Positions 8,271-62,514 of a stretch of DNA of 64,000 bases are shown here, in pieces. Within the stretch, counting starts at the first letter, position 1; every line of letters starts with the position of its first letter. The notes beneath the pieces were generated by a model. The model saw nothing but the letters and a program-made list of their open reading frames with translations. It was not told the DNA's origin and did not search any database. Made by a program: the position numbers and the translations under genes. Source of the DNA: Nannocystis bainbridge (GTDB taxonomy: Bacteria > Myxococcota_A > Polyangia > Nannocystales > Nannocystaceae); NCBI RefSeq assembly GCF_028368995.1, contig NZ_JAQNDL010000003.1:96001-160000 (forward strand), written 5' to 3'.

Positions 8271-8284
8271 GGCAGCAGAGCCTT

Positions 8285-8510
8285 GCCGCCAGACCCGTCT
8301 CCGCGTCGCGTAGATGTTCGCCATCCGCCGGCGCGAGCTGCAGGGCCCTGCCTCCGACGCGCCGCTCGAACGCCCGCAGCATTCGTCCTCCGCCCGACCA
8401 CAGCACCACCGGCACCTCCCCGAGCTCGTCGAGGATCACCGGTTCGGATGCCAGCCGGCTCGCCTCGTACGCCCTCGCCTTCGATCCCCGCCACGAACGC
8501 GCATGGACGT
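8285..8510 (-). pseudogene. DUF3179-like protein C-terminal fragment
   Basis: GSKARAY...VILDELGEVPVVLW...RAFERRVGGRALQL...LRDAETG resembles DUF3179 proteins. No start codon or N-terminus. Confidence 0.5.
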
Positions 8511-8573
8511 CCACCGGGGCCGTACTGCGAACCATGAAGCGAAGTTCGCTCCTCGCGCCTTGGCCGCCGACCG

Positions 8574-23237: not shown

Positions 23238-23513
23238 GAAGTGCAATTCGAACGCGGCGAGCTCGAGGCGGCGCGCTCGTTGTACGAAGAGTCGCGGTCC
23301 ATCATCGACGAGTTGGTGCGGTCGTTCCCGCAGAAGCTCACCGAGCTCGCGCGGCTCCGCCGGGCGCAGGGCGACCGCACGCTGGCCCTCGACGCAGCGA
23401 ACCGGGCGCGATCGATCCTCGGGGCCCTGCTCGCCAGTCCTCCCTCGCCTCTGCCGGAGTGGGAGGACTGCGCGCGACAGGTGAACGCACTCATCACCGA
23501 GCTCAATGCCTAG
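23238..23513 (+). pseudogene. TPR-protein C-terminal fragment
   Basis: RGELEAARSLYEESRSI...LTELARLRRAQGD helical repeats with no credible N-terminus. Confidence 0.45.
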
Positions 23514-23519
23514 CCGATC

Positions 23520-23800
23520 GAGTCGTGCGACGCGCGCGCGGCCGCGTGCGCGGCGACCCCGCGCATCACCGCGGTCAGCACGGCGAGCGCTGGCGCGGGG
23601 AGCTGATCGCGGACGGTGAGGCGCTGCTGTGGGCGGCGCTGGGTCCTCGCCCGGGCCTGCGGGCGCTGCGGGCGACGATCCACGCGGTGCACGCAGATCG
23701 CCGGCGCTCGGGGGTGACCGACTGGGCGGCGATCCTGACGCTGTACGGCACGCTGCTGCTGCTGCGCGACGACCCGGTGATCCGGGTCAATCGGGCGCGG
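23520..23800 (+). pseudogene. Fragment of ECF sigma factor C-terminal extension (ECF42/DUF6596-type)
   Basis: RW.GELIADG...RPG...ATIHAVHA...TDWAAILTLY...DPVIRVNRA. Confidence 0.65.
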
Positions 23801-23904
23801 GCGAATTCGGGCCTGCACGGTGACCAGCTCCAGGCCGACATCAAGCTCCTGCTCGATCGCACGCGCCGGTGCCTGTGGGGCGGCCTTGTCGTCGCCGAGC
23901 GCTC

Positions 23905-24286
23905 GGGCGTCGTCGCGGAGCGTGTCATGGTCATTCAGGTCTTCGTAGCCGCACAGAAGGCCCAGCACACGCTGCGCCAGCAGCTCCTCGACGGTGTGCT
24001 CGATGCGGCTCGGGTCGCGGTGGTCCCGGAAGCAGGACGCGAACCTTCGAAACACACCTGAGCTCTTGGTCAGCTCGCGCAGCAGCAGCAAACCGCCGTC
24101 CGAGCTGACCCGTCCGGCGTCGAACGCAGCCTCGACCCGGCGGCGTCCGGCAGGTTGAAAATCGAACTCGGCGCGGATACACCTTGTCGTGTTCCGGCCG
24201 TACCCCTGGGTGGCCAGCAATCGTTTCACACCCGCTCAAACTCGGGAAGTACGGCCGGAATTCCTTACCGTGGTGAGAAATCCGGG
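23905..24286 (-). mobile_element. Truncated IS1380-family element (left end and transposase N-terminus)
   Basis: EAAFDAGRVSSDGGLLLLRE...FRDHRDPSRIEHTVEELLAQRVLGLLCGYEDLNDHDTLR. Terminus CCCGGATTTCTCAC on the minus strand abuts CTAG at 24287-24290. Confidence 0.85.
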
Positions 24287-37545: not shown

Positions 37546-37859
37546 TAGCCCTGCGTCGCGGACCTGGCGATTCCGCAGGCCCGCGAATGCGAATCGGCGC
37601 ATCCCGGAAGCCGCGCGGTTCCGTCCGACCGCGCCGGGGCCCCATGGATCGGCTCGCTGCTCAGCGAGCCCCCGGCCCTCCGCATGCGTCCCCCGATGAT
37701 TCGCTGGCGGACTCCATCGATTACGAGCCTGCCGCGACCGATGATTGGGGTCACCGCTCCTCGCCGCGAGGCCCCAATTGCGGCCGCTACACTGCGACGA
37801 TCGACCCGCGCGAATCGACGCCTTGACGCTATTTGCCGCCCGGTGATAAGGCCGCTGCC

Positions 37860-38966
37860 ATGGCCATGACCCTGCAAAATTGGTGGTTCGTCCTGCCCTC
37901 CCTGACGCTGCTCGCCGCGCCCGCGTGCGGGGGCGACGGCGGCGCCACGACCGGCACCACCGGCACCGACGGCACGACGGAGCCCGGCACGACCGACGGC
38001 ACCACCACCACGGGCAGCACCGGTCAGCCGGGCAACCCGAGCAGCCCGGCCACCAGCGAGACGCCGACCACCGACGGCACCACCCTCGAGCCCACGACCG
38101 CCACCACCGACGAGCCGGCGACCGTGACCACGGAGGAGCCGGGCACCACCACTACCACCGAGCCCGGCACCACCACCAGCGAGCCGGGCACCACTACCGA
38201 CACCACCACCGGCACCACCGGCCCCGTCGAACCTGGCCCTGACCATATCCCCGAGATCCCCGACGACGGCATGCCCTCGTCGGCCCACTTCAAGAAGATC
38301 CCGCTCGGCATGTCCGACGCCACCCAGGGCTTCTGGGAGTACACCCCGCCCGGCTACGGCGGCGGCGAGAAGTACCCGCTGCTGGTGTTCCTGCACGGCA
38401 TCGGCGAGAACGGCAACGGCGACAGCGAGCTCGACAAGGTGCCCAACGGCGGCGGCCCGCCGCGGCTGCAGAAGAACAACCAGTGGGACACCACCCTGCC
38501 GTTCGTCGTGCTCTCGCCGCAGCACCCCGGCGGCGGCTGCCCCGGCCCGGGCGAGATCCACTCGTTCATCGAGTTCGCGATGACGCACTACGACGTGAAC
38601 CCCGCGCGCGTCTACCTCACGGGCCTCAGCTGCGGCGCGATCGGCTCGTGGGGCTACCTCGGCGATTTCCTCGACGAGCAGATCGTGGCGATGGTCCCGA
38701 TCGCCGGCGACGGCAAGGGCGCGTTCAACAAGGCCAAGTGCGAGCTCGGCCGCGTCCCGATCTGGGCCTTCCACGGCGACGCCGACCCGACCGTCAACGT
38801 CAGCGGCACCATCGTCCCGGTGGAGGGCCTGCAGGCCTGCGACCCCAAGCCCGACGTCGAGATGGTGATCTATCCCGGCACCGGCCACGACTCGTGGTCC
38901 AAGACCTACGATCTGTCCGCCGGCCATGACATCTATTCGTGGCTGCTCGAGCGCTACAAGCAATAG
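37860..38966 (+). CDS. Lipoprotein: Thr-rich linker + alpha/beta hydrolase (predicted peptidase/esterase)
   Basis: AAPAC lipobox; YPLLVFLHGIGE, YLTGLSCG, WAFHGDAD, GHDSW. Confidence 0.85.
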   Translation: MAMTLQNWWFVLPSLTLLAAPACGGDGGATTGTTGTDGTTEPGTTDGTTTTGSTGQPGNPSSPATSETPTTDGTTLEPTTATTDEPATVTTEEPGTTTTTEPGTTTSEPGTTTDTTTGTTGPVEPGPDHIPEIPDDGMPSSAHFKKIPLGMSDATQGFWEYTPPGYGGGEKYPLLVFLHGIGENGNGDSELDKVPNGGGPPRLQKNNQWDTTLPFVVLSPQHPGGGCPGPGEIHSFIEFAMTHYDVNPARVYLTGLSCGAIGSWGYLGDFLDEQIVAMVPIAGDGKGAFNKAKCELGRVPIWAFHGDADPTVNVSGTIVPVEGLQACDPKPDVEMVIYPGTGHDSWSKTYDLSAGHDIYSWLLERYKQ

Positions 38967-42869: not shown

Positions 42870-42968
42870 CGGCGCTCGCGTTCGCGGCGGCCGGTGTCGA
42901 GACGGCGCCGGGGTCGGCGGCGCCGACGATGCGACGGCTCGCGGGGCGTGTGGTACCCTGCGGCCTTC

Positions 42969-44321
42969 GTGCGAGTTGAAAGCGCCACCGAGCCGCACCC
43001 GCAGCGCAGCGGACGTCCGCTCTCGCCGGGCGACCTCGTCGCCGATCGCTACCGCATCGTCCGGGCGCTCGGGCGCGGCTCCTTCGGGCACACCTACCTC
43101 GCCGTCGACACCGCCGCCGGCGACCGCGAGGTCGCGGTCAAGCAGCTGCGCACCGACGGGGACAGCGGCTGGAAGGCGTTCGAGCTGTTCGAGCGCGAGG
43201 CCGCGGCGCTGCGGTCATTGCGTCACCACGGGATCCCCGAGATCTTCGATCACCGGCGCGAGACCGCCGGCGGCGCGCTGACGGCCTACCTGGTGATGGA
43301 GTACATCGAAGGGGTCTCGCTCGAGCAATGGATCGACGATGGCGCCAGCCTCGACCCGGCCGCGCTGCTGCGGGTGGCGCTCGGCCTGCTCGACATCCTC
43401 GAATACCTGCACGCCCGCGTCCCGCCGGTGCTGCACCGTGACATCAAGCCCGCGAACGTCGTCCTCCGCCCTGACGGCGCGCCGACGCTGGTCGACTTCG
43501 GCGCCGTGCGCACGGTGTTCCGCGCGGCCGAGGAGGGCGGCTCGACGGTGGTCGGAACTTTCGGCTACATGCCGATCGAGCAGACCATGGGTCAGGCCAG
43601 CCCTGCCAGCGACCTGTACGCCGTCGGGGCGACGCTGCTCCACCTGATCACCCGTCGCCCGCCGACGCAGTTCGCCTCGCGCGACGGCGTGATCGAGGTG
43701 CCTGCCGAATTGCCGGGCGGACCCGTCGTGCGCGGGGTGATCGCGCGGCTGCTCGCCCCGATCGCGTCGGCCCGCTATCAGTCGGCGAGGGAGGCCCGCG
43801 AGGCGCTGCTCGCCCCGGTCCTGGGCGCCGCGGCGGCGTCGCAGAGCGTCGCGCTCGCGCCGATCCCCCCGACGACGCTGGCCCTGCCGCCGACCCCCCG
43901 GGCGCTCGCGGGGGAGCTCGGTACCCGCTTCGAACGGGTGACCCTGTCGCCCATCCGCCTGCTGTTCTCCGACCTCCACCCGTCGCAGCCACTCTCGCTG
44001 GCCCAGCGCAGCTTGATGCTGCTGCTCGGGCTGATGTCTCTGGGCATCGCCCCGCTCATCTTCTGGTTCACGTGCCGTGCGCGGCGCACCCGGGCCCACC
44101 CCTTCTTCGTCCACGGCGTGCCGGTGTCCGGGCTCATCTTGCAGGTGCAGAGGACCGAGTGGATCCAGGTCACCTACGAGTTCGTGCACGCCGGCGCCAC
44201 CCATCGCGGCGTCGACACCATCATCCCGGCGGTGGCCGGACGCTGGCAACCCGGCGATGCGATCGAGCTGCTGGTACTGCCCGAGCGCAACCACGACAGC
44301 ATCATCGTCTCCAGCGCCTGA
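42969..44321 (+). CDS. Ser/Thr protein kinase with C-terminal TM segment and small beta domain
   Basis: LGRGSFG, VAVK, HRDIKPAN, DFG, GTFGYMP. Start uncertain. Confidence 0.9.
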   Translation: MRVESATEPHPQRSGRPLSPGDLVADRYRIVRALGRGSFGHTYLAVDTAAGDREVAVKQLRTDGDSGWKAFELFEREAAALRSLRHHGIPEIFDHRRETAGGALTAYLVMEYIEGVSLEQWIDDGASLDPAALLRVALGLLDILEYLHARVPPVLHRDIKPANVVLRPDGAPTLVDFGAVRTVFRAAEEGGSTVVGTFGYMPIEQTMGQASPASDLYAVGATLLHLITRRPPTQFASRDGVIEVPAELPGGPVVRGVIARLLAPIASARYQSAREAREALLAPVLGAAAASQSVALAPIPPTTLALPPTPRALAGELGTRFERVTLSPIRLLFSDLHPSQPLSLAQRSLMLLLGLMSLGIAPLIFWFTCRARRTRAHPFFVHGVPVSGLILQVQRTEWIQVTYEFVHAGATHRGVDTIIPAVAGRWQPGDAIELLVLPERNHDSIIVSSA

Positions 44322-44617: not shown

Positions 44618-47557
<2,940 letters not shown>

Positions 47558-47878
47558 CGCTATTTACAGGTGACTCGCTGCGAGTCGAGGGCTGACCTCG
47601 ACCGCGGCGGAGCGAGCCTTCGGCACTCGCTGCGGCGCGCTGCGTCGGCCCGCGGGCCGCGACTCGCCCATCCGCCTCATCGCCCTCGTTTCCCCTTCGG
47701 GTCGCCCCCGAAGCCACGTCGGCCGCGATCTCGCGCATTGCGTCATATGTCCCGAAGGACATCTCGAATCGACGTTCACCGCGCCCGGGTGCGCGCTCGC
47801 CCGTGGGTGCCCGGGGAGACACGTCGACGCACGCATCGGCGGGCAATTGTTCCGCCGCCTGCTGACGCTCTGGTTTGT

Positions 47879-49897
47879 ATGCCCAGCACGCGAAAGTTCC
47901 TGTCCGCCTGCACCGCCCTCACGCTCGCTGCCGCGCCCGCAGCGGCCGGAGCCGCCTCGGTGCGGGTCAACGTCCAGGTCCCGTACGACATCCAGACCAA
48001 GACCTTCGACCTCGAGATGCTCGAGTACCAGAACCTGCAGCCGGTGTTCTACCGCCCGTTCGACATCCCCTACGACACCCTCGAGCCGATGCTCGACCAG
48101 CTGCTCGAGGACGTCGTCGGCCGCCACCACGAGTTCTACATCAAGTGCACCGGCCTCGGCATCGACGAGCTGTGCCCCGACACCGAGGTCGACGTCTTCC
48201 TCCACTCGAAGCTGCGGTTCACCAAGAAGAACCAGCCCAAGCTGACCCAGCTGGGCCCGGCCGCGGACAACAAGTTCCGCCTCGCGATCGACACCCAGGT
48301 CCGGATCGACCTCGACGCCCGGATCAAGCACGAGACCGGCATCTGGTACTCGAACAGCGAGACGGTCGAGCTGTGGGTCAAGATCGGCGCGCGCGCCAGC
48401 GTCGACCTCACGCTGTGGCCGACCCCGAAGGCCGAGAACCTCAAGGTCGAGCTCAAGAAGGAGGGCGGGGACGTCGTCATCCATGGCCTCGAGGAGCAGA
48501 TCATCGCCGCCGGCGCGATCGTCGGCGGCGTCACCCTCGGCCCGCTCGGCGCGGCGCTCGGCGCGATCCTCGGGGCCATCGGCGCCGACGCGGCCAACGA
48601 CGCCATCATCGACGTCATCAACGACGCCCTCACCGACCAGATCAACGCCGCCAACGTCCTCCTGCGCGAGCACGTGCAGGGGCTGATCGACCCCGCGATC
48701 GCGCAGGCCGTCGACTACCGCAATCAAGCGCTCAACACCAAGATCCCCCGGCTCGACATGACCATCGCCCAGGCGCTGGCGCTCAGCCCCGTCAGCCTCG
48801 ACGTGCGCACCTCCATCAAGAACGACGCGCTCGCGCTGGCCGCCACCGCCCGCATCGACCCGACCGGCAAGGGCAAGAGCCTCTCGGGCTTCTTGCGCTT
48901 CCCCAAGTCGAAGTGCAACTACATGGAGGGCGGCAACAAGACCGTCGGTTACTTCCAGATCCCGACCGAGGTCGTGCCGATGAACACCGACCTCGCGGGC
49001 AAGCCGTGCGCCTCGATCGTGTCGGCCTCGACCTTCGCCCGCTCGACCTACCTCGGCGAGAGCCCCAACCGCGTGCTCCACACCGGCGACCCGGCCGACC
49101 ATTTGCCGAGCTGGCAGTCGACCGGCACCGTCAGCACCAGCGGCAACGTGGTCGAAAAGGCCGACTACTACGAGTGCCCCTACACCCTCGGCAACCTGCC
49201 GAACGCGGCGATCCTCGAGCTCGCCACCGTCAAGGACTCGGTGCTGCACGAGCGCCTCGACCTCGGGGTGTTCCGCGCCCGCTTCCTGTTCGCCGCGGCG
49301 CTCAACCCGCTGAAGCTGTTCGATGCCAGGGGCAAGCTGCTCCCGGGCCCGCTGGTGTTCGGCGGCAAGGGCCCGAAGACCGTCGACGACTGCCCGAGCT
49401 ACGCCGGGCGCGGCAGCGGCCTGCGGCCCAACAAGCTCGAGCAGCTCAAGGACAAGTTCGACCCCGATACCTGCCCGACCTGCGGCCTGCTCGACGTATT
49501 CAACCACCTCGACCTGATCTCGAACCCGGCCGAGAAGGTCGTGCTCGAATCGGTGATCGACAAGGCCGGCATCACCAAGAAGTATGACCAGGTGCAGCAG
49601 CAACTGGCCAGCGAGGGCGCGCTCCAGAGCGTGCAGCGGCTCCAGAAGGTGCTCGACTCCGGCGTGATCGGCCGCGCCTGGGACGCCGTCGACAAGGCCC
49701 GCGCCAAGGTCGGCAACCTCAGCCCCAAGGGCGTCACCGTCAAGCAGGTCGGCACCGCGGCCGCGCGCAAGAAGTCCATCAAGGTGTTCGACGGCACCAA
49801 GGCCGTGAAGATGACCAGCGTGCGCCTCAAGGACAGCGCCCTGCCGACCGCCAAGGTCGAGGTCTTGGTGACGAAGGGCAAGAAGGCCGGCAAGTGA
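47879..49897 (+). CDS. Hypothetical secreted protein with glycine-zipper hydrophobic segment
   Basis: Signal peptide MPSTRKFLSAC...AAA; AAGAIVGGVTLGPLGAALGAILGAIGA; strong GC3 codon bias. Confidence 0.8.
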   Translation: MPSTRKFLSACTALTLAAAPAAAGAASVRVNVQVPYDIQTKTFDLEMLEYQNLQPVFYRPFDIPYDTLEPMLDQLLEDVVGRHHEFYIKCTGLGIDELCPDTEVDVFLHSKLRFTKKNQPKLTQLGPAADNKFRLAIDTQVRIDLDARIKHETGIWYSNSETVELWVKIGARASVDLTLWPTPKAENLKVELKKEGGDVVIHGLEEQIIAAGAIVGGVTLGPLGAALGAILGAIGADAANDAIIDVINDALTDQINAANVLLREHVQGLIDPAIAQAVDYRNQALNTKIPRLDMTIAQALALSPVSLDVRTSIKNDALALAATARIDPTGKGKSLSGFLRFPKSKCNYMEGGNKTVGYFQIPTEVVPMNTDLAGKPCASIVSASTFARSTYLGESPNRVLHTGDPADHLPSWQSTGTVSTSGNVVEKADYYECPYTLGNLPNAAILELATVKDSVLHERLDLGVFRARFLFAAALNPLKLFDARGKLLPGPLVFGGKGPKTVDDCPSYAGRGSGLRPNKLEQLKDKFDPDTCPTCGLLDVFNHLDLISNPAEKVVLESVIDKAGITKKYDQVQQQLASEGALQSVQRLQKVLDSGVIGRAWDAVDKARAKVGNLSPKGVTVKQVGTAAARKKSIKVFDGTKAVKMTSVRLKDSALPTAKVEVLVTKGKKAGK

Positions 49898-49928
49898 TCG
49901 CATAACGACGGGTCGTGAACATCGAAAT

Positions 49929-49965
49929 CGCCTGCCCGGCGGCCGACCCGGCCGCCGAGCAGGCG
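49929..49965 (+). terminator. Stem-loop downstream of the secreted protein gene
   Basis: CGCCTGCCCGGCGGCCG-ACC-CGGCCGCCGAGCAGGCG, 16/17 paired, followed by TCATTT. Confidence 0.55.
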
Positions 49966-50131
49966 TCATTTCGTGTTCACCAACTATCGCCATTCACCAC
50001 ACCTGGGACTCGCCGGCGAATATCCACAGTCTGCCGCGCTCGCGGCGTCGAGCTTCCCCCCCGTTCAGACCCCGCAGCAATCCTTGCGCCCCGCGGAAGA
50101 CCGCGCCCTCCGCGCGACGCCGATTCTCGCA

Positions 50132-50158
50132 ACGGATCGCCCTCGCCTGGCGACTACC
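50132..50158 (+). promoter_or_regulatory. Putative ECF promoter copy 1 (ACGGA-N15-GACTACC)
   Basis: 6 nt before ATG 50165; same motif and spacing at 51620 and 55436. Confidence 0.7.
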
Positions 50159-50164
50159 GCCACC

Positions 50165-50944
50165 ATGGGTCAGTCCGAGCAGGGTAGCGGGGTGCGGGCG
50201 TTGTTCGCCGCCTGGGCGGCCGCCGAGAGCGACGAGGCCGCGCTGGCGGGCCTGGCCGGGCTGCTCGCCGGCCCCGAGACCAGCGACGCCGGGGCGAGCT
50301 TGCGACGCCTGTGGCCCCCGCCCGCGCTCTCCACGGCGGAGCTCGCCCCCGCGCCCGCCGCTCGCCCCCGCGACCCCGCGCTCGAGCGGGCCATCGCCAC
50401 CGCGAGCGCGTGCGTCGGTCGCCTCGCCTCGGTCGACTCCGGCCACGTCCGGGCCCTCGCCACCGCCTGGCTCGTGCGCCCCGACCTGGCTGCCACCATT
50501 CGCAAGCCGCTCCTGCCCTGCCTCGCGCAGCTGACCCGCGGCGAGCGCAGCTTGCAGCTCGAGCTCGCCGGCGTCACCCCCGTGGCGGTGCGCGAGGTCC
50601 TCTACGTCGCCCCCGATTGCGACCTCGCGCTGCTGCGGGTCGCCGCGCAGCCGAGCTTCATCGCCCTCGCCCCCGGCGTCGCCCACGGTCACGAGCTGGC
50701 CGCGATCGACTGTAGTGATTCTCCGGAATCACAGGCCGGCGAGGCGCTGCCCGGCGGCCTGCGCCTGGTCCAGGGTCGGGTCCAGGAGGTCTCCTCGGTG
50801 CTGCTGCGCCACGACTGCGCGGGCCGTCCCGGCGGCGTGCTGCTCGATCTGGCCTCGGGCCAGGCGATCGGCCTCACCGTCGGCGGTCACGCGTCGGTGC
50901 CCGGCTGGCTGGTCCGCGAGCGGATCGAGCGGCTCACGCGATGA
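50165..50944 (+). CDS. Degenerate trypsin-like domain protein (probable pseudo-protease)
   Basis: Paralogous to 54469-55383 (VGRL, TAWLVRPD, DLALLRV, LRHDC, GGVLLDLASGQAIGL, VPGW) but TNRH becomes TIRK and GGSSGG becomes GRPGG. Confidence 0.7.
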   Translation: MGQSEQGSGVRALFAAWAAAESDEAALAGLAGLLAGPETSDAGASLRRLWPPPALSTAELAPAPAARPRDPALERAIATASACVGRLASVDSGHVRALATAWLVRPDLAATIRKPLLPCLAQLTRGERSLQLELAGVTPVAVREVLYVAPDCDLALLRVAAQPSFIALAPGVAHGHELAAIDCSDSPESQAGEALPGGLRLVQGRVQEVSSVLLRHDCAGRPGGVLLDLASGQAIGLTVGGHASVPGWLVRERIERLTR

Positions 50945-50956
50945 CGGTCGCCCGCC

Positions 50957-51574
50957 TCACCGCGACGCCACGAGCTGGGCCCGCAGCCCGGCCGCCCATT
51001 GCTCGAGCCCGGAGATCGTGCTCTCCATCTCCGCCGCGCTGGCCTCGAGCCCACGAATCGCCGCCTCGAGCTGCTGCTTGGCCCGCCGCAGGCGGCTGCG
51101 CGCCGTGTCCTCCGGCACCCCGAGGAACGCCCCGAGCTCCGGCCCGCTCATGCGCTCCCAATAATAAAGCTCGAGGATCACCTGCGACGCGACCGGGATC
51201 TGCCGCAGCCCGTGCAGCAGCAGCCGCTGCTCCGCGTGCGCCGCCAGCAGCGACGTCGGGCTCGATCCCAGATCGACCAGCGACAGCTTCTCGAGGTCGA
51301 GCTCCTCCGGCGCCCGCCGGTTGCGGCGCAGGTGGTCGCGCAGGACGTTGTGGGCGATCGCAAACAGATACGTGCGAAACGAGGCGTCGCCGCGGAACCG
51401 GTCGCGGCCCTCCACGCAGCCGATGAAGGTCCGCTGCACGAGGTCCTCGGCCTGCTGCTCCACCTTGTTGCGAAAGAACCTGCGCACGGCGTCGAAATAG
51501 CGGTCGAACAACGTACTGCCCGCCTGGCGATCGCCGGCCCGCCAGGCGGTGAGGAGCTCCTGATCGCTCGACAT
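50957..51574 (-). CDS. ECF RNA polymerase sigma factor
   Basis: SDQELL.AWR.GD, AEDLVQRTF, SFRTYLFAIAHN, LGVPEDTARSRLRRA. Confidence 0.93.
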   Translation of the reverse strand: MSSDQELLTAWRAGDRQAGSTLFDRYFDAVRRFFRNKVEQQAEDLVQRTFIGCVEGRDRFRGDASFRTYLFAIAHNVLRDHLRRNRRAPEELDLEKLSLVDLGSSPTSLLAAHAEQRLLLHGLRQIPVASQVILELYYWERMSGPELGAFLGVPEDTARSRLRRAKQQLEAAIRGLEASAAEMESTISGLEQWAAGLRAQLVASR

Positions 51575-51619
51575 GGCGCCACTCTACCACGAGGGCCAGG
51601 CCGCGAAACCCGCTGGCTG

Positions 51620-51646
51620 ACGGACCCGCCCCTCGGAGACACTACC
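51620..51646 (+). promoter_or_regulatory. Putative ECF promoter copy 2 (ACGGA-N15-CACTACC)
   Basis: 6 nt before the kinase ATG at 51653. Confidence 0.7.
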
Positions 51647-51652
51647 CCGGCC

Positions 51653-54466
<2,814 letters not shown>

Positions 54467-54468
54467 GC

Positions 54469-55383
54469 TCAAATCGAGCCCTCCAGCTGCGCCAGCCGCT
54501 GCTGCACCACCCACCCCGGCACCCCGAGATTGACGCGGCGGTCGCGTGATTCGCCGAAGTTGAGGCCGATCACCGATCCGCGGACCAGGTCGACGATCAC
54601 CCCGCCCGAGCTGCCACCGAGCGTGGTGCAGTCGTGCTCGAGCAACGTGTCCGACGTCGACACCAGGCGCCCGAGCGAGATCCGCTTGAACCCGCGGCCC
54701 TCGCGGTCGAACCAGCCGTCCCCGAAGATCTGCTGGTACTCGGGCTCCGCGTAGCCGCCCTCCGCGTGGCTCGGGAAACCGATCACCGCCACGGGATTGG
54801 CGGTGACGATCGAATCGACGACGACCAGCCCGACCTGGGGCGCCCCGCGCTGCTTGACTCGCAAGAACGCCAGGTCGTGGATCGGGTCGATGTAGAGCAC
54901 CCGGGTGACCGGGCAGTGGAGCACCGCGGAACCGTCGGCCTCGGCGCTCAGGTTCACGCGCAACGTCCGGGCGCCGCGCTGCACGTCGTCGAGGAGCGAC
55001 AGGATCGTGTGGCGATTGGTCACCGCCACGTCGGGACGGATCAACCATGCCGAGCCGCACTGCGTCAGCGGCCCGAGCTCGGGGCACTCGAGTCGGCCGA
55101 CCGCCCCCACCATCGCCTCCAGATGCCGTCTGGCCGCGTGGACCACCGCGCGCCAGGCCGGCTCGGGCGGCAGCGCGAAGCTCCCGTCGCGGACCGTCAG
55201 CGGGGCCGGGAACCACTGATGGACGAGCTCCAGCCCGTCCGCCTCGGCCGCGGTCAGCGTCTGCAGCGGCTCGCCGGGCGGCGCGGCGAGGCCGACCTCG
55301 TGACTCTCCAGGGTGTCCTCGGACGTCGTCATCTGCGTCGCTCCTCCGGCCTTCGTCTCTTCGGGTGATAGTCGCATCGGCAT
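54469..55383 (-). CDS. Trypsin-like (V8-type) serine protease without signal peptide
   Basis: Catalytic triad VTNRH, HDLAFL, HDCTTLGGSSGG; GAAGGGG RBS. Confidence 0.88.
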   Translation of the reverse strand: MPMRLSPEETKAGGATQMTTSEDTLESHEVGLAAPPGEPLQTLTAAEADGLELVHQWFPAPLTVRDGSFALPPEPAWRAVVHAARRHLEAMVGAVGRLECPELGPLTQCGSAWLIRPDVAVTNRHTILSLLDDVQRGARTLRVNLSAEADGSAVLHCPVTRVLYIDPIHDLAFLRVKQRGAPQVGLVVVDSIVTANPVAVIGFPSHAEGGYAEPEYQQIFGDGWFDREGRGFKRISLGRLVSTSDTLLEHDCTTLGGSSGGVIVDLVRGSVIGLNFGESRDRRVNLGVPGWVVQQRLAQLEGSI

Positions 55384-55435
55384 CCCCTTCCGTGCATCTA
55401 CACCGCGAGATCGATCATTTGTCGCGACGGCGTGA

Positions 55436-55462
55436 ACGGTTCGCCGACGTCTTGGCACTACC
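55436..55462 (+). promoter_or_regulatory. Putative ECF promoter copy 3 (ACGGT-N15-CACTACC)
   Basis: Upstream of the small gene at 55527. Confidence 0.65.
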
Positions 55463-55526
55463 GGTTCACAGCGCGACGGCGTCGGCGATGTCCGCCGGGC
55501 CGGCGCGTCACAGGAGTTGTATTGTC

Positions 55527-55925
55527 ATGGCAGTCACATGGACTTTGAAGGATAGCTCGGGGGCCAATCTCAGCACGCAGCCGACCTCGACCGGCACGCT
55601 CGCGCTGACCTTCAACAACAGCGGCTATCCCTACTACGCCCCCGGCGAGATCATCACCGAGGTCCTCGCCGAGGTCGACAGCACCGGCCCGGTGACGATC
55701 ACGCTATCGCCGCAGAACGAGGGCTATTACCTCGACGAGAGCCGCAGCGACCCGCAGGAGCTGCCCTCGTCCCACGGCGGCGTGATGTCCTGGTCCCAGA
55801 GCGGCCCCGTCACGACCCTCACCTTCACCGCGCCCGGCACCGTCAGCAACGAGTGGTCCTGGGGCTTCGGCGGCCTGACCCCGCCGGTCGGGCTGAAGAT
55901 CAAGGTGCGCGTGCGGCGGGCCTGA
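55527..55925 (+). CDS. Small beta-rich hypothetical protein (132 aa) with basic C-terminus
   Basis: AGGAG RBS, ATG 55527, coding-like codon usage; ends [14 protein letters not shown]. Confidence 0.75.
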
Positions 55926-56025
55926 CGATCCGACGCCGCGAGGCGAGCGAGGCGCGCGGAACCTGCTCTTTAAGCCAGGTCATCGCGCGTCGCGCTCGCC
56001 TCGCCGACCTGTTACCATCCGCCGC

Positions 56026-57018
56026 GTGTCTGCGCTCCCGGTCCTCGACCTCTCGCCGCTCCGACACGACCCTGCCGCCGCCGACGCGCTCGCGCGGGCC
56101 ATCGCCGCCGCGTGCCGCGACAGCGGCTTCTTCTACGTCGTCGGCCACGGCCTCGACCCAACCTTGCTCGCCCGCCTCGAGGCCCTGAGCCGCCGCTTCT
56201 TCGCCGCCGCCGACGCCGACAAGCAGGCCCTCGCGATGCACCACGGCGGCCGCGCCTGGCGCGGGTGGTTCCCGCTCGGCGGCGAGCTCACCTCGGGCCA
56301 GCCCGACCTCAAGGAGGGCCTGTACTTCGGGACAGAGCTGCCCGCCGACCACCCGCGCGTGCGCGCCGGCGTCCCGCTGCACGGCGCCAACCTGTGGCCG
56401 GCGTGGCTGCCGGAGCTGCGCCCGGTCGTGCTCGCCGTCATGGCGCAGCTGGCCGAAGTCGCCCAGCTGGTGCTCGAGGGCGTGGCCCGCAGCCTCGGCC
56501 TCGCGCCCGAGTGGTTCCGCGTGCACTACACCGGCGGGACGGGCGAGCCGACGCAGCTGTTCCGGATCTTCCACTACCCGGCGACGCCGCAGCCGGGCTG
56601 GGGCGTCGGCGAACACACCGACTACGGCCTCCTGACGCTGCTCGTGCAGGACGACGTCGGCGGCCTGCAGGTCAAGACCCCGCGCGGATGGATCGACGCC
56701 CCGCCGCTGCCCGGGGCGCTCGTGTGCAACATCGGCGACATGCTCGACCGCCTCACCGGCGGCTGGTACCGCTCGACCCCGCACCGCGTGCGCGCCTCGA
56801 CCGCGCGCGATCGCCTGTCGTTCCCGTTCTTCTTCGACCCCGCGTGGGACGCCGAGATCGTGCCCCTGCCGCGCGCCGCCGACCTGCCCGACGACGCCGC
56901 CGAGCGCTGGGATTCCGCCAGCGTGCACGCCTTTCGCGGCACCTACGGCGAATACCTGCTCGGCAAGGTGGCCCGCGTCTTCCCCGCCCTGCACGCCGCC
57001 GTAAAGGCCGAGATGTGA
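56026..57018 (+). CDS. 2-oxoglutarate/Fe(II) dioxygenase (IPNS-like family)
   Basis: [15 protein letters not shown] (HxD), TPHRV, RLSFPFF. Confidence 0.93.
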
Positions 57019-57708: not shown

Positions 57709-58971
57709 TCAGCGAGGACTGGCGACCTTGAAGGTCGGCGGGCGGCTGCCGACGCGCCGGCGCGACCACACGGTCCATTCCCACTGGCTGACGCCGGCGA
57801 GGTCGTCGCCTTCGGCCGTGATCTCGCCGGACTCGTAAAGGGCGACCAGCGTGTCGAGCAGCGACTCGATGTCGTAGGCGACGATCTGGCGGTCGTTGTC
57901 GTCGTGCCAGAAGCTGACGAGCTCGTCGGCCTCGCCGCCGAACTCACCGCCGGGGTCGAGGCAGATGTCGTTGCCCGACGGATCGTGCAGCAACGGCAGC
58001 CAGGCTGGGTTCCACCACTGGGGCTCGTCGGCGAACCACTTGCGGCAGTCGGTGCGCCGGGCCACGGCCTCGTCGATCGAATAGAGCGAGTAGACGAACG
58101 CGATCGGCATCAACTCGCCGCCGCCGTCGTGCCAGGCCCACAGCTGGCGCAGCGCCGGCGGCAGCGGACGGCCGAGCTCGCGCTCGCAGGCGTCGAGCCG
58201 CGCCGGGTCGGCGCCCGGCCGCAGCTCGGCGTGGACGGCGGGGGTATGAGTCGCGAGCCAGCGCTCGAGGCGAACGAGCAGGCCGTCGACGCGGGCGCGC
58301 TGGGCCGCGGCCTCGCGCTCACGCCACGCGAGCACCTCGGGGATCCACGGCGGCGGCTCGTCGGGCGGCTCCGGCAGGCGCTCGGCCCACCGCCAGATTG
58401 CGTCGAGGTGAGAGAGGTACTGCGACTCGATCAGGGCCTCACGGGCCTCGCCGTCGACGCGGCGTAGCTCGTGGTCGAACGCGGCGATCCGCAGGTGCGT
58501 CAGCATATCGTCGTCGCGCGCGTCCGAGCCGCGCCCGAGGAATGCGTCGTTGCGATCCTCGCGATCCTGCTCGACGCGCTTGACGAGCTCGGCCAGCATG
58601 CGGCGGCGCGGGCCGGGGCGCCGCGCCTCGATGTAATTCGAGAAAGCGGCGCACTGCTCCGGCGAGCCCTCCCCGTCGAGCACGCGCAGCATGTGGGCCG
58701 TCTGCGCGGGGTCAGCGAGGCCTCTCGCGCAGGCGCGCCGGGCCCTGAGCCGGAGCATCAAGAAGCGGGCACGCACGATGGTCCCGCGTTCGGGTTGAAC
58801 CATGCTCGCGCCCCACAGGTGCTGCTCGTCGGGCCTCGGCCACACGCCGGCGAGGAACGGGTAGCCGACCTCCTCCATCGTGAAGCGGCCGGTCGTCGGA
58901 TCGAGCCGGCACGCTTCGGTGAGCTCGAGGCCCTCGATGATCAGGTCGAGGTCGGGCCAGTGGATCTTCAT
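57709..58971 (-). CDS. Protein with C-terminal SMI1/KNR4 (SUKH) domain
   Basis: LRPGA...E..LG..LP..LRQLWAWHDG; WWNPAWLPL..D.SGNDICLD..G. Confidence 0.8.
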   Translation of the reverse strand: MKIHWPDLDLIIEGLELTEACRLDPTTGRFTMEEVGYPFLAGVWPRPDEQHLWGASMVQPERGTIVRARFLMLRLRARRACARGLADPAQTAHMLRVLDGEGSPEQCAAFSNYIEARRPGPRRRMLAELVKRVEQDREDRNDAFLGRGSDARDDDMLTHLRIAAFDHELRRVDGEAREALIESQYLSHLDAIWRWAERLPEPPDEPPPWIPEVLAWREREAAAQRARVDGLLVRLERWLATHTPAVHAELRPGADPARLDACERELGRPLPPALRQLWAWHDGGGELMPIAFVYSLYSIDEAVARRTDCRKWFADEPQWWNPAWLPLLHDPSGNDICLDPGGEFGGEADELVSFWHDDNDRQIVAYDIESLLDTLVALYESGEITAEGDDLAGVSQWEWTVWSRRRVGSRPPTFKVASPR

Positions 58972-59212
58972 CAGCGCCTGTCGGCGGAATCGTGGCACGC
59001 CGGCAGGCCGCGCGCAAGACCGCGCGCCGGCGCCGACCCCAAGCTCCCACGAAGGCGATGGCACGGCTGTCCCGAAGGACAGCTCCCATCCGAATCGCGA
59101 CCGGTCGGCCAGCTCACAGCCTGCGCGCGAGCGTCAACCCCGCTCGACGATCCGGCATCACCGCATCGTCGAGGCAGGTCGAGCGCAATCGCCGACGCGC
59201 CGGCGACCTCGC

Positions 59213-62200
59213 TCAGCGAGCCCGGCGCCGGCGCAGCGTCAGCAGCAGCAGCGTCAGCGCCGACAGCCCGGCCCCGCCGGGCCCGTCCTGGCGGCAGCCG
59301 CAGCCGCTCTCGTCGGTCGCGCCGCCGCCCGTGTCGCTGTCCGTGTCGCCGCCCGAGCCCGTCGAATCACTCGCCTCGGTGTCGCTGCCCGCGTCCGTCG
59401 CCGAGGTGGTCGGCTCCGGCCCGGTCTCGCTCGAAGCACCCGTCGTCGGCAATTGCCCGCTCGAGCCGTCCGAGTCCGACCCGCCGCTCGTCGTCGAGTC
59501 ACCGTCCACCGAGCAATCGGCCTCGCAGCCGTCGCCGCCCGCCGCGTTGCCGTCGTCGCACTGCTCCCCGCTGTCGACCACCCCGTCGCCGCAGCCGGCG
59601 TCCGAGCAGTCGGTGCGGCACGCGTCGGCCGCCTCGTCGCTGTTGTTCGCGCCCTCGTCGCAATCCTCGCCGACGCTGACGATCCCGTCGCCGCACACCG
59701 CCGCCGGCGCGTCGACCACCCCGACCACGCACAGCGCGTCGAGCGTCCAGCCGCCCATCTCGAGCCCGCCGTCGCTGCGCAGCTCGTACTTCAGCGTCAC
59801 CGCGTCGTTCACCACCGACGCCGTCAGGTCGACGTCGTGGAACCGCCACTCGCGGTCCGTGTGGTGCGTGCTCGCGTCGTTCATCATCAGGCTGGCGAAG
59901 TTGGTCCACACCGGCTCGTCGTTGGCGTAGATGCGCGCGCGGTCGAAGAACCCGTCCTCGATGTTGAGCCAGCGGCGGTACTGCAGGCGCACCTGCGAAT
60001 AGCCGGTCGTGTCGATCACCGGCGACTGCGCGAAGTTGGTCTTTTCCGACTGATACGTCCCGTTGAAGTTGCCGCCGCCGAGGTCGTTGCCGAACACGCG
60101 CGTCCCGTCGAACGCCGCCTGCGGGTCGCCCGACGCCGTCGGCGAGAGCGGCTCCTGCCACATCCAGTCGTCGGCGCCCTCGCCTTGCTGCCCCATCGAC
60201 AGCCCGTGCGTCCAGCCGTCGGCGGCCGGGTCGGACTCGAAATCGGTGCAGTAGATCTCCTCGACCGCGCCGACGAAGAACTCGTAGAACGGATCGGCCG
60301 CGTTCTCCGGGTACTGCAATTCGGTCGCGTCCGCGAACGTGATCTTGACCTGGTACTGCACCACGCTGCCGGCCGGCTGCTGCGGGATCTTGGCCGTGAT
60401 CTGATCGGGCGCCACGTCCATGGCGATCACCCCGCCGACGTCCTGCTGCTCGCGCAGGCGCCACGTCAGCTCCGCCGACTCGATCGCCCCGCCGCTGCAC
60501 TGCCCGCCCGCGCCGTCGACCGCGACCGACACCGTGTACTCGGCCAGCTGCGGCAGCGCCACCCCCGGCGCCTCGACGTCGACCCCGAGCTTGAACAGCC
60601 CGTGCTTGGCGAACGCGCTGTTGATCAGGCACTGGTTGGGCGTGCCGTTGGCGAGGTCGCCGTCGTCGTCGTCGGCCGCCAGCGCCTCGAAGTACATGCT
60701 CGGGATGTCGACCGCGCGGCGGATCGACTCGTAGTAGATGTGATCGGCGTGGGCCACCGCGCCCGGCCCCTGGTCCTCGACCAGCGCCTTGCGCAGGTCC
60801 CACAGCGCGCCGGCGATGATGAGGCCCGTGATGTGCGTGTCGCCGTCGACGTCGTCGGGCCACACCGCCTCGCTGCCGTTGGGGTCGATGTGGCGCAGCG
60901 GCCCGGGGTCGTTGAGGAAGAAGCCGATGCCCATCGCCGGGTCGTCGACCACCGTCGCCGCCAGGTAGTCGCTCACGCCCTCGGACAGCGCCGGGTCGAA
61001 GTTACCGACGCCCTGGATGATGGCGTGGTCGTGCACCCCGTGGCCGTACTCGTGATAGACGATGTCGGCCACCCGCCCGGTGTTGTTGCACTGGTTGCTC
61101 TGGCGGAAGAAATTGATGTTGCCGTCGTAATAGGCGTTGCAGCTCTCGTTGATGTTGACGGTCGCGGCGAGCTGCTGGGCGACGAACTCGAAGGTGGGGT
61201 CGATCTGGCGCACGTAGTCGATCACGTGGTTGGCGTGCACGAACGTCGAGATCTGCGCGTCGACCAGCTCGTCGTTGGCCGCGTTCCAGTTGACCGTCTG
61301 GTTCGGCTGCAGGTTGAGGTTCGCGGTCGCCTCGTTGCCCGCGTCGTTGGCGACCGTCACCTGCGTGCCGCTGGCCCGCGTCGTCACCATGGTCGCATTG
61401 TTGCCGTTCCACATCACGTCGCCGGTCGGCGAGCTGGTGACGTTCATCCCGCCCACCGTCAGCGCCGCGCGGTTGGCCGGCCAGTTCTGCCGCTCGCCGC
61501 CGGGCTCGCGCACTGGCGCGTTGTAGGCCACCTTGCCGCTGGCGAACAGCAGCGTCTGCTTGCGCGCCACCGGCTCGCCCGTGGCCGCGTCGACGTAGAC
61601 CCGCCAGCGCCCCAGCGGCGCCGTGGTCGCCAGCTCGACCGGCACCACCGTCGCGTACTCGACCCCGCCCCCGCGCACCAGCGGCAGCACCACCGCCTCG
61701 TGCGCGGCCTCGAAGGAGACTGTCCCCGGGGACAGGTCGCGCTCCAGCCACTCGCTCGCGGCCGTGCGCGCCTGGGCGGCGCCCACCTGGCGGACCGCCG
61801 GCGCCGGCACGTGCGGCAGCGCCTCCGAGCCGATCATGAACAGGCGGTCGTTGCGGAAGCGGAAGCTGACCTGCCCGCCCTCGACCGCCACCCCGCGGAC
61901 CCGCTGCACGAACCCGAGTGTGCGCATTCCGCCGCTCTCGACATTCGCCACCAATGTGAAGTCCGCCGCCGACGCCCCCGGCGCCAGCAGGCCGACGTGA
62001 CGGGCCAGGAACGCCCGCGCGAGCCGCTCGGCCGCCACGGGCGAACCCGCGCTCCCGGGCGCCGCGATCCCGGCGCCCCAGATCCGCCGCACCACGTCGG
62101 TATCGCGGTCCCACACCGCCCACGTCTGCGGCCCCATCTCGGCCACCAGCCGCGCCCACGCGCCCCCGTGCCGCGCCGGCGCCTGGTACCACGTCAGGTC

Positions 62201-62347
62201 GGCCAGCGCCCGCACCGGAGCCCCCCGGGCGACCTCCACGGCGGGCCGCCGCGCGTGCGCAGCAGGGGTCTGAACCGCGCTCGCGGTCGGGCTGACGGCC
62301 ATCAAAGTGGCCGCGGTGAGGGTGGCAATTCCGTGGGCGAGTCTCAT
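59213..62347 (-). CDS. Secreted M4/M36-like zinc metalloprotease with Cys-rich repeats and MYXO-CTERM
   Basis: Signal peptide, propeptide, CNAYY, YHEYGHGVH, ALSEGVSD; CGDGIV...EDCDEG repeats; GCGCRQ...TM...RRRRAR. Confidence 0.9.
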   Translation of the reverse strand: MRLAHGIATLTAATLMAVSPTASAVQTPAAHARRPAVEVARGAPVRALADLTWYQAPARHGGAWARLVAEMGPQTWAVWDRDTDVVRRIWGAGIAAPGSAGSPVAAERLARAFLARHVGLLAPGASAADFTLVANVESGGMRTLGFVQRVRGVAVEGGQVSFRFRNDRLFMIGSEALPHVPAPAVRQVGAAQARTAASEWLERDLSPGTVSFEAAHEAVVLPLVRGGGVEYATVVPVELATTAPLGRWRVYVDAATGEPVARKQTLLFASGKVAYNAPVREPGGERQNWPANRAALTVGGMNVTSSPTGDVMWNGNNATMVTTRASGTQVTVANDAGNEATANLNLQPNQTVNWNAANDELVDAQISTFVHANHVIDYVRQIDPTFEFVAQQLAATVNINESCNAYYDGNINFFRQSNQCNNTGRVADIVYHEYGHGVHDHAIIQGVGNFDPALSEGVSDYLAATVVDDPAMGIGFFLNDPGPLRHIDPNGSEAVWPDDVDGDTHITGLIIAGALWDLRKALVEDQGPGAVAHADHIYYESIRRAVDIPSMYFEALAADDDDGDLANGTPNQCLINSAFAKHGLFKLGVDVEAPGVALPQLAEYTVSVAVDGAGGQCSGGAIESAELTWRLREQQDVGGVIAMDVAPDQITAKIPQQPAGSVVQYQVKITFADATELQYPENAADPFYEFFVGAVEEIYCTDFESDPAADGWTHGLSMGQQGEGADDWMWQEPLSPTASGDPQAAFDGTRVFGNDLGGGNFNGTYQSEKTNFAQSPVIDTTGYSQVRLQYRRWLNIEDGFFDRARIYANDEPVWTNFASLMMNDASTHHTDREWRFHDVDLTASVVNDAVTLKYELRSDGGLEMGGWTLDALCVVGVVDAPAAVCGDGIVSVGEDCDEGANNSDEAADACRTDCSDAGCGDGVVDSGEQCDDGNAAGGDGCEADCSVDGDSTTSGGSDSDGSSGQLPTTGASSETGPEPTTSATDAGSDTEASDSTGSGGDTDSDTGGGATDESGCGCRQDGPGGAGLSALTLLLLTLRRRRAR

Positions 62348-62514
62348 CGGTCTCCTCCGCGGGTGCGCCAGAGCGCACCACGCCGGCACCCTACCAAAAC
62401 GCAAGACCCTGGAGGTATGTTTGTGTCTAGCGCGTGCTCACAGGGAGAACCCTGTCTCCGCCAGACCCCTCGCCCTGCCCCCAGGCGGCGCGTACCCTGA
62501 GGCGATGCATCACA

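Follow-up and report, generated by a model that had tools for sequence, protein, structure and literature searches.

A conserved Nannocystis cassette in which a kinase-linked ECF sigma factor may control a protease, its inactive paralogue and a small protein

What does an extracytoplasmic function (ECF) sigma factor control when no anti-sigma gene accompanies it and its neighbours encode a receptor-like kinase, two trypsin-like proteins and a small protein? The question is raised by a five-gene cassette in a 64,000-nucleotide (nt) stretch of the myxobacterium Nannocystis bainbridge (contig NZ_JAQNDL010000003.1 of assembly GCF_028368995.1, positions 96,001 to 160,000, forward strand; hereafter the window), which has a G+C content of ~70%. 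Reading and translating positions 49900-56300 revealed five densely packed genes of alternating orientation: a dead trypsin-like paralogue (pseudo-protease; 50165-50944, plus strand, 259 amino acids (aa)), an ECF sigma factor with a conserved C-terminal extension of ~30 aa (50957-51574, minus strand, 205 aa), a Hanks-type Ser/Thr kinase (51653-54466, plus strand, 937 aa) made up of a kinase domain, one transmembrane helix (residues 321-343), a Cys-containing juxtamembrane region and a TPR ectodomain, an intact S1 (Trypsin_2) protease (54469-55332, minus strand, 287 aa), and a small beta-rich protein (55527-55925, plus strand, 132 aa) with a W-x-W-x-F-G motif and a basic amphipathic C-terminal strand. 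An ATG downstream of a GGAGGAG ribosome-binding site was taken as the protease start; the longest open reading frame (ORF) would begin at a GTG at 55458. A first-pass annotation, made from the DNA sequence alone, had placed the same five genes at these positions, and translation and Pfam searches confirmed them all; overall, its observation was confirmed and its interpretation is partly supported. The regulatory half, in which a Hanks kinase adjoins an ECF sigma that lacks an anti-sigma, belongs to a known type; the outputs are undescribed. On balance we lean slightly towards a reading in which the kinase acts on the sigma, the sigma on four local promoters, and the resulting protease on the small partner, with the dead paralogue as a regulator.

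The cassette is a recurrent unit. Four further loci were recovered by a genome scan with the small-protein alignment and two peptide patterns, a procedure that may miss distant genomes: L001 from Nannocystis sp. RBIL2, L003 from N. pusilla Na p29, and L002 and L004 from N. exedens DSM 71 and N. punicea FL3. All five genes occur in the same order in 4/4 of these loci, giving five genomes with the window, and the earlier proposal that the protease and small-protein genes belong with the sigma-kinase pair is borne out by their co-occurrence in each of the four other Nannocystis genomes. The kinase gene adjoins the sigma gene divergently, 78 nt apart, in 5/5 genomes, and the small-protein and protease genes are likewise divergent, 194 nt apart, in 5/5. 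Amino-acid identity to the window proteins was highest for the sigma (91-93%), followed by the small protein (80-89%), the protease (70-74% over 287 aa), the dead protease (68-78%) and the kinase (52-64%). All five genes are under purifying selection, with ratios of nonsynonymous to synonymous substitution rates (dN/dS) from 0.12 to 0.55; the sigma gene spans 0.12-0.17.

Four of the five genes are preceded by a bipartite, promoter-like motif with the combined consensus tgMCGGW-N15-SACTAYC. Sites P1 (ACGGA-N15-GACTACC; 50132-50158) and P2 (51620-51646), both on the plus strand, lie 6 nt from the ATG of the pseudo-protease and kinase genes, respectively. Site P3 (55436-55462, plus strand) lies 64 nt from the ATG of the small gene, and P4 (ACGGA-N15-GACTATC; 55367-55393, minus strand) lies 34 nt from the protease ATG, with the GGAGGAG sequence in between. 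The first-pass annotation had reported the motif at 50132, 51620 and 55436, before the pseudo-protease, kinase and small genes; these exact copies stand, with 0.00 expected by chance, and what it overlooked is the protease site, a one-mismatch copy (ACTATC) read on the minus strand from 55393 to 55367. With P4, every cassette gene except the sigma gene carries a copy of the motif, and the self-contained regulon with its own bipartite promoter that had been proposed now comprises four sites. There were four exact matches in the 64 kb against 0.00 expected, and 0/100 shuffles had any; at up to one mismatch there were six against 0.54 expected, a count that 0/100 shuffles reached. Two matches away from the cassette were set aside: an exact one at 38130, inside a Thr/Pro-rich coding stretch of ACC repeats (coding sequence 37833-38963) and probably due to chance or composition, and a one-mismatch site at 35015-34989, also inside coding sequence.

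A position weight matrix (PWM) trained solely on the 16 orthologous sites from the other four genomes was used to score the ~128,000 positions of the window. The four cassette sites ranked first, at 32.3 (P2), 24.0, 19.8 and 14.9, followed by the rejected match at 38130 with 8.1; the scores are somewhat inflated because the orthologous spacers feed the matrix, and the ranking is still clear. No other good PWM or motif site was found in the 64-kb window plus 4 x 20 kb of the orthologous loci. All 16 orthologous sites fit the pattern at no more than two mismatches (13/16 at no more than one), and the CGG and ACTA cores are kept in 20/20 sites of the five genomes. By hand count, 40/48 box positions are invariant among orthologues, compared with 31/60 spacer positions; leaving out P2, which lies in a generally conserved kinase promoter, the counts are 29/36 and 18/45. 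At P1, the -35 and -10 boxes are conserved in the five genomes and the spacer is invariant at 5/15 positions (also by hand count).

The spacing of P1 and P2 had led to the suggestion of leaderless mRNAs for the pseudo-protease and kinase. The 6-nt gap between motif and ATG is correct and is kept in 10/10 sites across the five genomes; since the two genes also have no ribosome-binding site, their mRNAs fit a leaderless start. Ribosome-binding sites are present for the protease and small genes, whose leaders are 34 and 64 nt. The sigma gene has no upstream copy of the motif. At 6 nt from its ATG stands TGGTAGAGT (51581-51589, minus strand), a possible extended -10 element that would suggest a housekeeping-type leaderless start for the sigma; a scan for consensus sigma-70 promoters gave 0 matches and did not call TGGTAGAGT.

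The promoter evidence is as good as sequence alone allows, and because the link from sigma to sites is drawn from sequence only, it has to be asked whether the motif is instead read by another regulator or a paralogous sigma, its adjacency to the sigma-kinase pair being incidental. Many paralogous sigmas (60-70% identity) are encoded in these genomes, the motif matches no ECF group motif in the portion of the Casas-Pastor supplement searched, and the absence of a site before the sigma gene itself would also be in keeping with this explanation. It fits less well with the form of the sites, which are bipartite with ECF-like spacing and have their -10 box where a start at the ATG requires it in 10/10 cases, or with their distribution, as the four sites surround this very sigma gene in strict synteny in five genomes and are the only good ones in the sequence scanned. 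We regard a foreign reader of the motif as quite improbable.

The sigma itself is readily classified. It matched Sigma70_r2 (54.9 bits, residues 22-87), Sigma70_r4_2 (32.4 bits, residues 118-169) and Sigma70_ECF (31.8 bits) in Pfam and TIGR02937 in NCBIfam (95.9 bits, cut-off 42.9), and its family aligns end to end with E. coli sigma-E; it has sigma2 and sigma4 domains only, which makes it an ECF (group 4) sigma. The family is large (2409 matches of ~205 aa in Nannocystaceae and other Myxococcota) and includes paralogues at 61-70% identity within the same Nannocystis genomes. The claim that no anti-sigma gene accompanies it held up: the intergenic gaps of the cassette are, in order, 12, 78, 2 and 194 nt, so an anti-sigma gene cannot fit within it, no known anti-sigma domain was found in the cassette proteins (Pfam), and none was found among the 11 + 4 neighbouring ORFs scanned, which covered those of at least 90 aa.

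Residue conservation was taken from an alignment of 40 sigma family members. The sigma2.2 region reads Q-A-E-D, and Glu43 and Asp44, both nearly invariant, fall on the DxxD core-binding motif of E. coli sigma-E; in the canonical Q-E that follows, Glu is replaced by a nearly invariant Arg. Ser98, Gly103, Ser105, Pro106, Ser185 and Thr186 are also nearly invariant. Ser98 and Ser105 belong to the final part of the sigma2-sigma4 linker; the C-terminal extension of ~30 residues holds Ser185 and Thr186. From their conservation, these four residues are candidate phospho-sites.

The product of the divergent gene is a membrane Ser/Thr kinase with TPRs, as had been claimed, with matches to Pkinase (137 bits, residues 49-302, profile positions 2-253 of 263) and TPR_12 (89.5 bits). 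Its Hanks catalytic domain is complete, the glycine loop, VAVK, HRD..K..N, DFG and SPE all being readable. A Kyte-Doolittle scan found one hydrophobic segment, residues 321-343, which follows the sequence KRRRRR; because this single segment comes after an Arg/Lys run, the C-terminal TPR part of ~590 residues is presumably outside the cell. The juxtamembrane ectodomain type is common to other Myxococcota kinase-TPR proteins (Atlas structural neighbour at a template modelling (TM) score of 0.81), and the kinase's PADLOC matches are generic kinase-domain matches.

Kinase-linked ECF sigmas without an anti-sigma are an established class (PMC7826278, PMC8999054, PMC13147305). In ECF43, represented by EcfP/PknT of Vibrio parahaemolyticus and EcfK/PknS of Xanthomonas citri, an ECF sigma without an anti-sigma likewise adjoins a single-pass Hanks kinase with an extracytoplasmic sensor; the ECF43 kinases have one transmembrane helix and extracytoplasmic TPRs (PMC7826278 supplement), and the pairs control nearby outputs, namely polymyxin resistance and a type VI secretion system against amoebae (PMC8999054, PMC13147305). 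The first-pass annotation had invoked activation of the EcfP/PknT type, and this part of its interpretation fails. In the sigma2.2 region of ECF43, DAED is replaced by QTTA or STTA and forms a phospho-threonine switch (PMC13147305, PMC8999054), whereas the cassette sigma family carries Glu43-Asp44 at those positions; with the acidic residues already present, the EcfP threonine switch is impossible, and the cassette sigma is not an ECF43 member. The two arrangements also differ in that the ECF43 kinase lies downstream at +1 and the cassette kinase divergently at -1, and in the outputs, which in the cassette are the protease trio.

The closest described group, compared by description only, is ECF283, which the cassette pair resembles. 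According to the supplement of Casas-Pastor et al. (2021), the group is proteobacterial, its kinase is transmembrane and encoded at -1, and phosphorylation is proposed to occur in a Ser/Thr-rich stretch of the linker; a review table lists an actinobacterial example (PMC8999054). The cassette kinase is also transmembrane and at -1. The sigma linker contains Ser98, Ser104, Ser105, Thr107 and Ser108. The ECF283 promoter motif, as given in the supplement, is poor (CCTT at -35, AG at -10) and does not resemble the cassette sites. No publication on this cassette was found in the literature on ECF283 or on Nannocystis sigma factors with kinases.

The predicted sensor is the most variable part of the cassette. 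Over the ectodomain (window 52680-54466; L001 7087-8876), L001 and L003 share 59-79% identity in 200-nt windows, as against 92-94% over the kinase domain and 94-100% over the flanks. Synonymous divergence is 0.59-0.86 in the ectodomain (all pairs) and 0.22-0.35 in the kinase domain (leaving out the frame-affected L003 pairs), a difference of ~3x. This pattern suggests old alleles that were shuffled, or gene conversion involving paralogous TPR genes, rather than simple positive selection, and marks the putative sensor as polymorphic.

Turning to the outputs, the protease matched Trypsin_2 at 55.6 bits, and its His-Asp-Ser triad is kept in 5/5 orthologues; in the family alignments, His108 and Asp153 are invariant and Ser242 nearly so. 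A word-indexed search found 22 relatives: Nannocystis and other sequences down to ~47% identity, then a looser group of 335-356-aa active proteases at ~30% identity. The closest solved structures are narrow-specificity S1B enzymes, glutamyl endopeptidases and Spl proteases (E from 6e-10). Further afield lie plasmid proteins, mostly annotated as non-specific endonucleases. On a Rhizobium plasmid, the protease family profile matched (E 2e-69) the trypsin domain at the N-terminus of a 685-aa nuclease protein, which is 31% identical to the window protease and aligns with it over a shared N-terminal motif. It also matched a Streptomyces plasmid protease (E 1.5e-86). The Rhizobium protein is adjoined by a second trypsin-like gene, a MoxR ATPase and a patatin-like lipase, and both trypsin genes there are catalytically intact. 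The small-protein and sigma profiles had no match in the two plasmid loci, and the small protein none among the plasmid records. In PADLOC 2.0 the protease had weak matches, to PDC-M35A (E 3.5e-8) and RT-protease models (E ~1e-6).

The pseudo-protease is a paralogue of the protease (32% identity, 81/251 residues, E 3e-26) that reached 24.3 bits with Trypsin_2, below the Pfam cut-off of 27.6, and had no PADLOC 2.0 match. The earlier description of a paralogue without the catalytic His and Ser proved accurate: His is replaced by Lys and Ser by Pro, Asp is kept, and a loop of ~20 aa is deleted. The same Lys and Pro occur in all four readable orthologues, those of the window, L001, L002 and L004, and in the relevant frames of the frame-broken L003 copy. 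Judged by homology, the pseudo-protease has the protease fold, but it is not an enzyme. Its dN/dS of 0.33-0.36 in three comparisons, together with the shared substitutions and loop deletion, indicates that it is maintained by selection and not decaying. It further has an extra conserved helical N-terminus that is absent from the active copy.

The small protein is the least familiar component, an orphan as had been reported. Ten close relatives were found, of which those named are all from Nannocystis, and the wider family is sparse, a search of 1.84 billion cluster representatives having returned 41 at E up to 1e-3; nearly all relatives are stand-alone proteins of 111-148 aa. Family features are an M-x-x-T-W-T-L start, the W-x-W-x-F-G motif with an invariant Trp, and the C-terminal strand, which is basic, strongly amphipathic (beta moment 0.93) and ends 0-3 residues from the C-terminus in most members; the Nannocystis proteins end one residue past it. 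In 8/45 relatives (P0026, P0028, P0030, P0034, P0036, P0042, P0046 and P0047 in alignment A5), Pro/charged tails of 3-22 residues follow. The Pfam matches among 40 relatives were all weak or non-specific, some of them on five long multidomain proteins. The Atlas model is poor, with a predicted local distance difference test score (pLDDT) of 0.50, and its neighbours are Ig-like, including a chagasin-type peptidase inhibitor cluster (TM score 0.57), which serves as a lead only. A sequence search of the PDB with the small-protein profile gave a best E of 0.15. Comparison with the profiles of PKD-repeat proteins, which had come up as weak matches, returned probabilities of 25% and 0.2% and was rejected as evidence; it hints at most at an Ig-like beta fold. 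In three cases, a small-protein relative and a protease relative at 50-63% identity share longest contigs of equal size (8337, 4777 and 10310), which suggests that the two may stay paired beyond the sequenced genus. The same comparison between sigma and protease matches (contigs of 2631 and 2386) was not used, since chance is plausible among 120 x 22 pairs.

Where the three outputs act bears on the suggestion, made in the first-pass annotation, that the small protein is an external ligand. By this account the protease would process it for release as the ligand of the kinase's TPR ectodomain, in autocrine signalling or kin recognition. The kinase and small-protein genes do share a promoter type, the ectodomain is hypervariable, and between close strains the small protein and protease are 88-90% identical as compared with ~96% for the flanks. 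However, a Kyte-Doolittle scan, which stood in for a signal-peptide predictor, detected no N-terminal hydrophobic segment, as a signal peptide needs, in the protease, pseudo-protease or small protein, so all three are most likely cytoplasmic; the cassette has no exporter; and the small protein (80-89% identical among genomes) is far more conserved than the ectodomain (47-59%), a poor fit to ligand-receptor co-evolution. We consider this the least probable of the explanations weighed here.

In a second alternative, either the dead protease (through its N-terminal part) or the small protein would be a new kind of anti-sigma that the protease removes, and the kinase would be no more than a regulon member or second input. 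This would follow the logic of regulated anti-sigma proteolysis, as well as that of the CRISPR-linked CalpL-CalpT-CalpS system. A sigma-dependent inhibitor would supply the negative feedback typical of ECF systems and, with its acidic core-binding residues intact, the sigma may depend on inhibition instead of activation. Protease-controlled anti-sigma/sigma pairs in defence have been cited (PMC12642450), and the extra helical N-terminus of the dead protease would offer a candidate segment. The family sizes speak otherwise: with 2409 sigma matches, same-genome paralogues included, against 22 for the protease and 41 for the small protein, the two output families do not travel with the sigma as an anti-sigma would, and a known anti-sigma domain was not detected. 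We therefore hold an inhibitor hidden among the outputs to be improbable.

The reading that we favour can be set out as follows. The TPR ectodomain would sense an external, probably biotic or variable, cue, and the kinase would then activate the divergent sigma, as gene linkage and the behaviour of kinase-linked ECF groups suggest. The sigma would read the four local promoters, whose sites and conservation were described above, and these would give the kinase and dead protease leaderless transcripts, and the protease and small protein transcripts with a leader. Because the kinase gene carries a motif promoter, positive feedback through sigma-driven kinase expression, as proposed earlier, is allowed. 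As the likeliest output logic, the specific S1 protease would act on its co-occurring small partner, and the dead paralogue would serve as a dominant-negative or substrate-holding regulator.

By analogy with Trypco/Pepco modules, this would be a protease-effector logic armed by transcription and not by a fused sensor. Pepco is a 117-aa protein that pre-assembles as a barrel and becomes a pore once a protease removes its C-terminal tail (PMC12642450); such small proteins adjoin trypsin-like peptidases, and inactive trypsin domains of MoxR-vWA systems have been proposed as dominant-negative regulators or peptide binders (PMC7159879). The cassette likewise places a small non-enzymatic protein (132 aa here, 117 there) beside a trypsin-like protease in a multicellular bacterium, and its dead paralogue parallels the inactive trypsin domains. 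Unlike Pepco, its small protein has no sequence match and no N-terminal amphipathic helix; its genes are divergent and not in one operon, and sigma control takes the place of a fused STAND or vWA-MoxR sensor. The tails of the remote small-protein relatives noted above recall the removable Pepco tail; the Nannocystis proteins have none. The best-supported analogy is with Trypco/Pepco modules at the level of parts, the cassette not being a member.

Several points weigh against the favoured reading. We infer both the reading of the sites by the sigma and its phosphorylation by the kinase. A sigma with acidic sigma2.2 residues might bind core RNA polymerase without phosphorylation, and the very large size of its family (the 2409 matches) also counts on this side. 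In known modules a fused sensor keeps the protease latent; the cassette has none, and a protease co-induced with its substrate would need another control step. The small protein had no match in Pfam (E up to 0.1), NCBIfam or PADLOC. Among 40 of its relatives, no Trypco match was found at E up to 0.01 in Pfam, which we take to contain Trypco models, and a crude scan of 11-residue windows starting at residues 1-33 found no N-terminal amphipathic helix (helical moment at most 0.21). No relatives of the protease or small protein were found in phage records, and the four proteins searched against PHROGs, the small protein among them, gave 0 matches. The ectodomain dN/dS, at 0.32-0.62, is below 1. 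The cassette forms a fixed block of the chromosome between conserved flanks and is not an obvious mobile island: the upstream paralogous kinase and the downstream 2OG oxygenase genes are 86-90% identical in DNA to those of the other genomes, as against ~78-81% for the cassette, and no direct or inverted repeats bound it. Finally, frame changes occur in L003 at ~5200 (dead protease) and 6146-8956 (kinase), and in L001 at ~8480-8560, near the kinase 3' end; these may be long-read assembly errors or real decay of the cassette.

Some of these points fit a more ordinary output. With the same wiring, the response could be one to stress or development, based on regulated proteolysis or quality control, in which the dead paralogue acts as an adaptor and the small protein as a chaperone, inhibitor or structural component. 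A stable chromosomal block between housekeeping-type conserved flanks, purifying selection on all genes, outputs without a defence-system match or phage relatives, and the chagasin-type inhibitor cluster among the Atlas neighbours of the small protein (at the TM score and pLDDT given above) are all compatible with such a role. It accounts less readily for the closest relatives of the protease outside Nannocystaceae, which lie in conflict-type neighbourhoods (trypsin-nuclease, MoxR, patatin), for output families that are tiny and confined to one lineage, and for the hypervariable ectodomain, since a housekeeping stress sensor would not usually differ so much between strains that are nearly identical. 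A stress or developmental output is quite possible, if well short of probable.

The conflict-type neighbourhoods deserve a closer comparison. The Rhizobium neighbourhood is of the kind that Kaur et al. (PMC7159879, PMC8195603) describe in multicellular bacteria as NucA-trypsin and MoxR-vWA conflict systems. The NucA-trypsin genes beside MoxR on plasmids resemble the cassette in that the protease profile matches the trypsin domain of the endonuclease-annotated Rhizobium protein and a second trypsin-like gene adjoins. They differ in that the cassette has no nuclease domain, MoxR or vWA gene, and in that the second trypsin-like gene is intact on the plasmid and dead in the cassette. A further predicted conflict system built on a peptidase is that of the EACC2-caspase neighbourhoods, in most of which genes for an ECF sigma and a TPR protein occur as well (Kaur et al. 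2021, PMC8195603). The peptidase there has the caspase fold instead of the trypsin fold, an EACC2 constant domain is present, and the TPR protein is of the DUF1822 type where the cassette has its kinase. A stronger form of our favoured reading would make the cassette a device of cell-autonomous immunity or non-kin response: the polymorphic kinase would see a foreign cue and, through the sigma, arm a small pore-former or toxin, of a new family, that the protease activates, the co-induced dead protease setting the threshold as a safety device. The sigma would here be switched on by phosphorylation of its linker or C-terminal extension. As a specific proposal we rate this immunity function as unlikely.

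Further features of the cassette and its surroundings were noted. A palindrome-like 12-nt element with a GCAA-TCC-TTGC core (50076-50087, plus strand) lies ~45 nt upstream of P1 and may be the binding site of a further regulator. It is present once per locus in the orthologues (L001 4552-4563, L002 4565-4576, L003 4576-4587, L004 4523-4534), exact in these four and with one mismatch in the window, and the region upstream is otherwise variable. The leader of the small gene contains a GC-rich hairpin (55473-55506, plus strand; consensus energy -22.8 kcal/mol) that is better conserved than the promoter spacer and has little covariation (2/21 pairs), which is weak evidence. A search of 49900-56100 against Rfam gave 0 matches. 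The convergent pairs dead protease/sigma (50944/50957) and kinase/protease (54466/54469) end 12 and 2 nt apart; a terminator scan gave 0 matches, with no terminator-like hairpin at the convergent ends, and induced transcription of the dead protease gene could read antisense into the sigma gene.

Upstream, the cassette kinase gene is one of three Ser/Thr kinase genes within 12 kb (42894-44318, 44618-47557 and 51653-54466). The middle one encodes a kinase-transmembrane-TPR paralogue of the cassette kinase (41% identity over residues 42-463) that is 83-87% identical in protein among the genomes; no sigma of the cassette family and no copy of the motif was found near it. Between this gene and the cassette lies a strain-specific insertion of 2.6 kb (47545-50132), which L001-L003 lack and in whose place L004 has other DNA; the 12-nt element stays with the cassette despite it. 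The insertion encodes a 775-aa ORF (47570-49897, plus strand) with a Lys-rich C-terminus and no match in Pfam, NCBIfam or PHROGs. An internal Met followed by an Ala/Leu-rich stretch in this ORF looks signal-peptide-like by eye and was not flagged by the hydrophobicity scan. An 809-aa minus-strand ORF (47564-49993) was dismissed as an antisense artefact, the real gene being on the plus strand. A second variable spot lies downstream, where a SUKH-1 (SMI1/KNR4) gene, of a family often seen as immunity proteins, is found only in this strain and adjoins a gene for a conserved 1063-aa protein with a myxobacterial cysteine-rich acidic repeat (57709-59064 and 59213-62404, both minus strand). Elsewhere in the window are genes for a 1705-aa kinase-AAA_16-GAF-STAS protein (2145-7259, minus strand) and a DDE transposase fragment (23513-24229, minus strand).

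Kinase-dependent ECF sigmas are understood from two ECF43 examples only; the kinase-linked groups that keep the acidic motif must differ, and none has been worked out according to a review (PMC8999054). The Nannocystis cassette offers a small closed test system for this problem, with one sigma, one kinase, four promoters (two of them apparently leaderless) and few conserved Ser/Thr residues. Its outputs pair a protease from a conflict-associated clade with a dead paralogue and a small-protein family without annotation. If the small protein is indeed a protease-controlled effector, the protease-effector theme would extend to transcriptional control by a surface receptor, and should the immunity function prove true, the cassette would mirror the protease-effector defence modules with fused sensors, but with transcription as its gate. 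Otherwise, it would still be a clean example of a maintained bacterial pseudo-protease.

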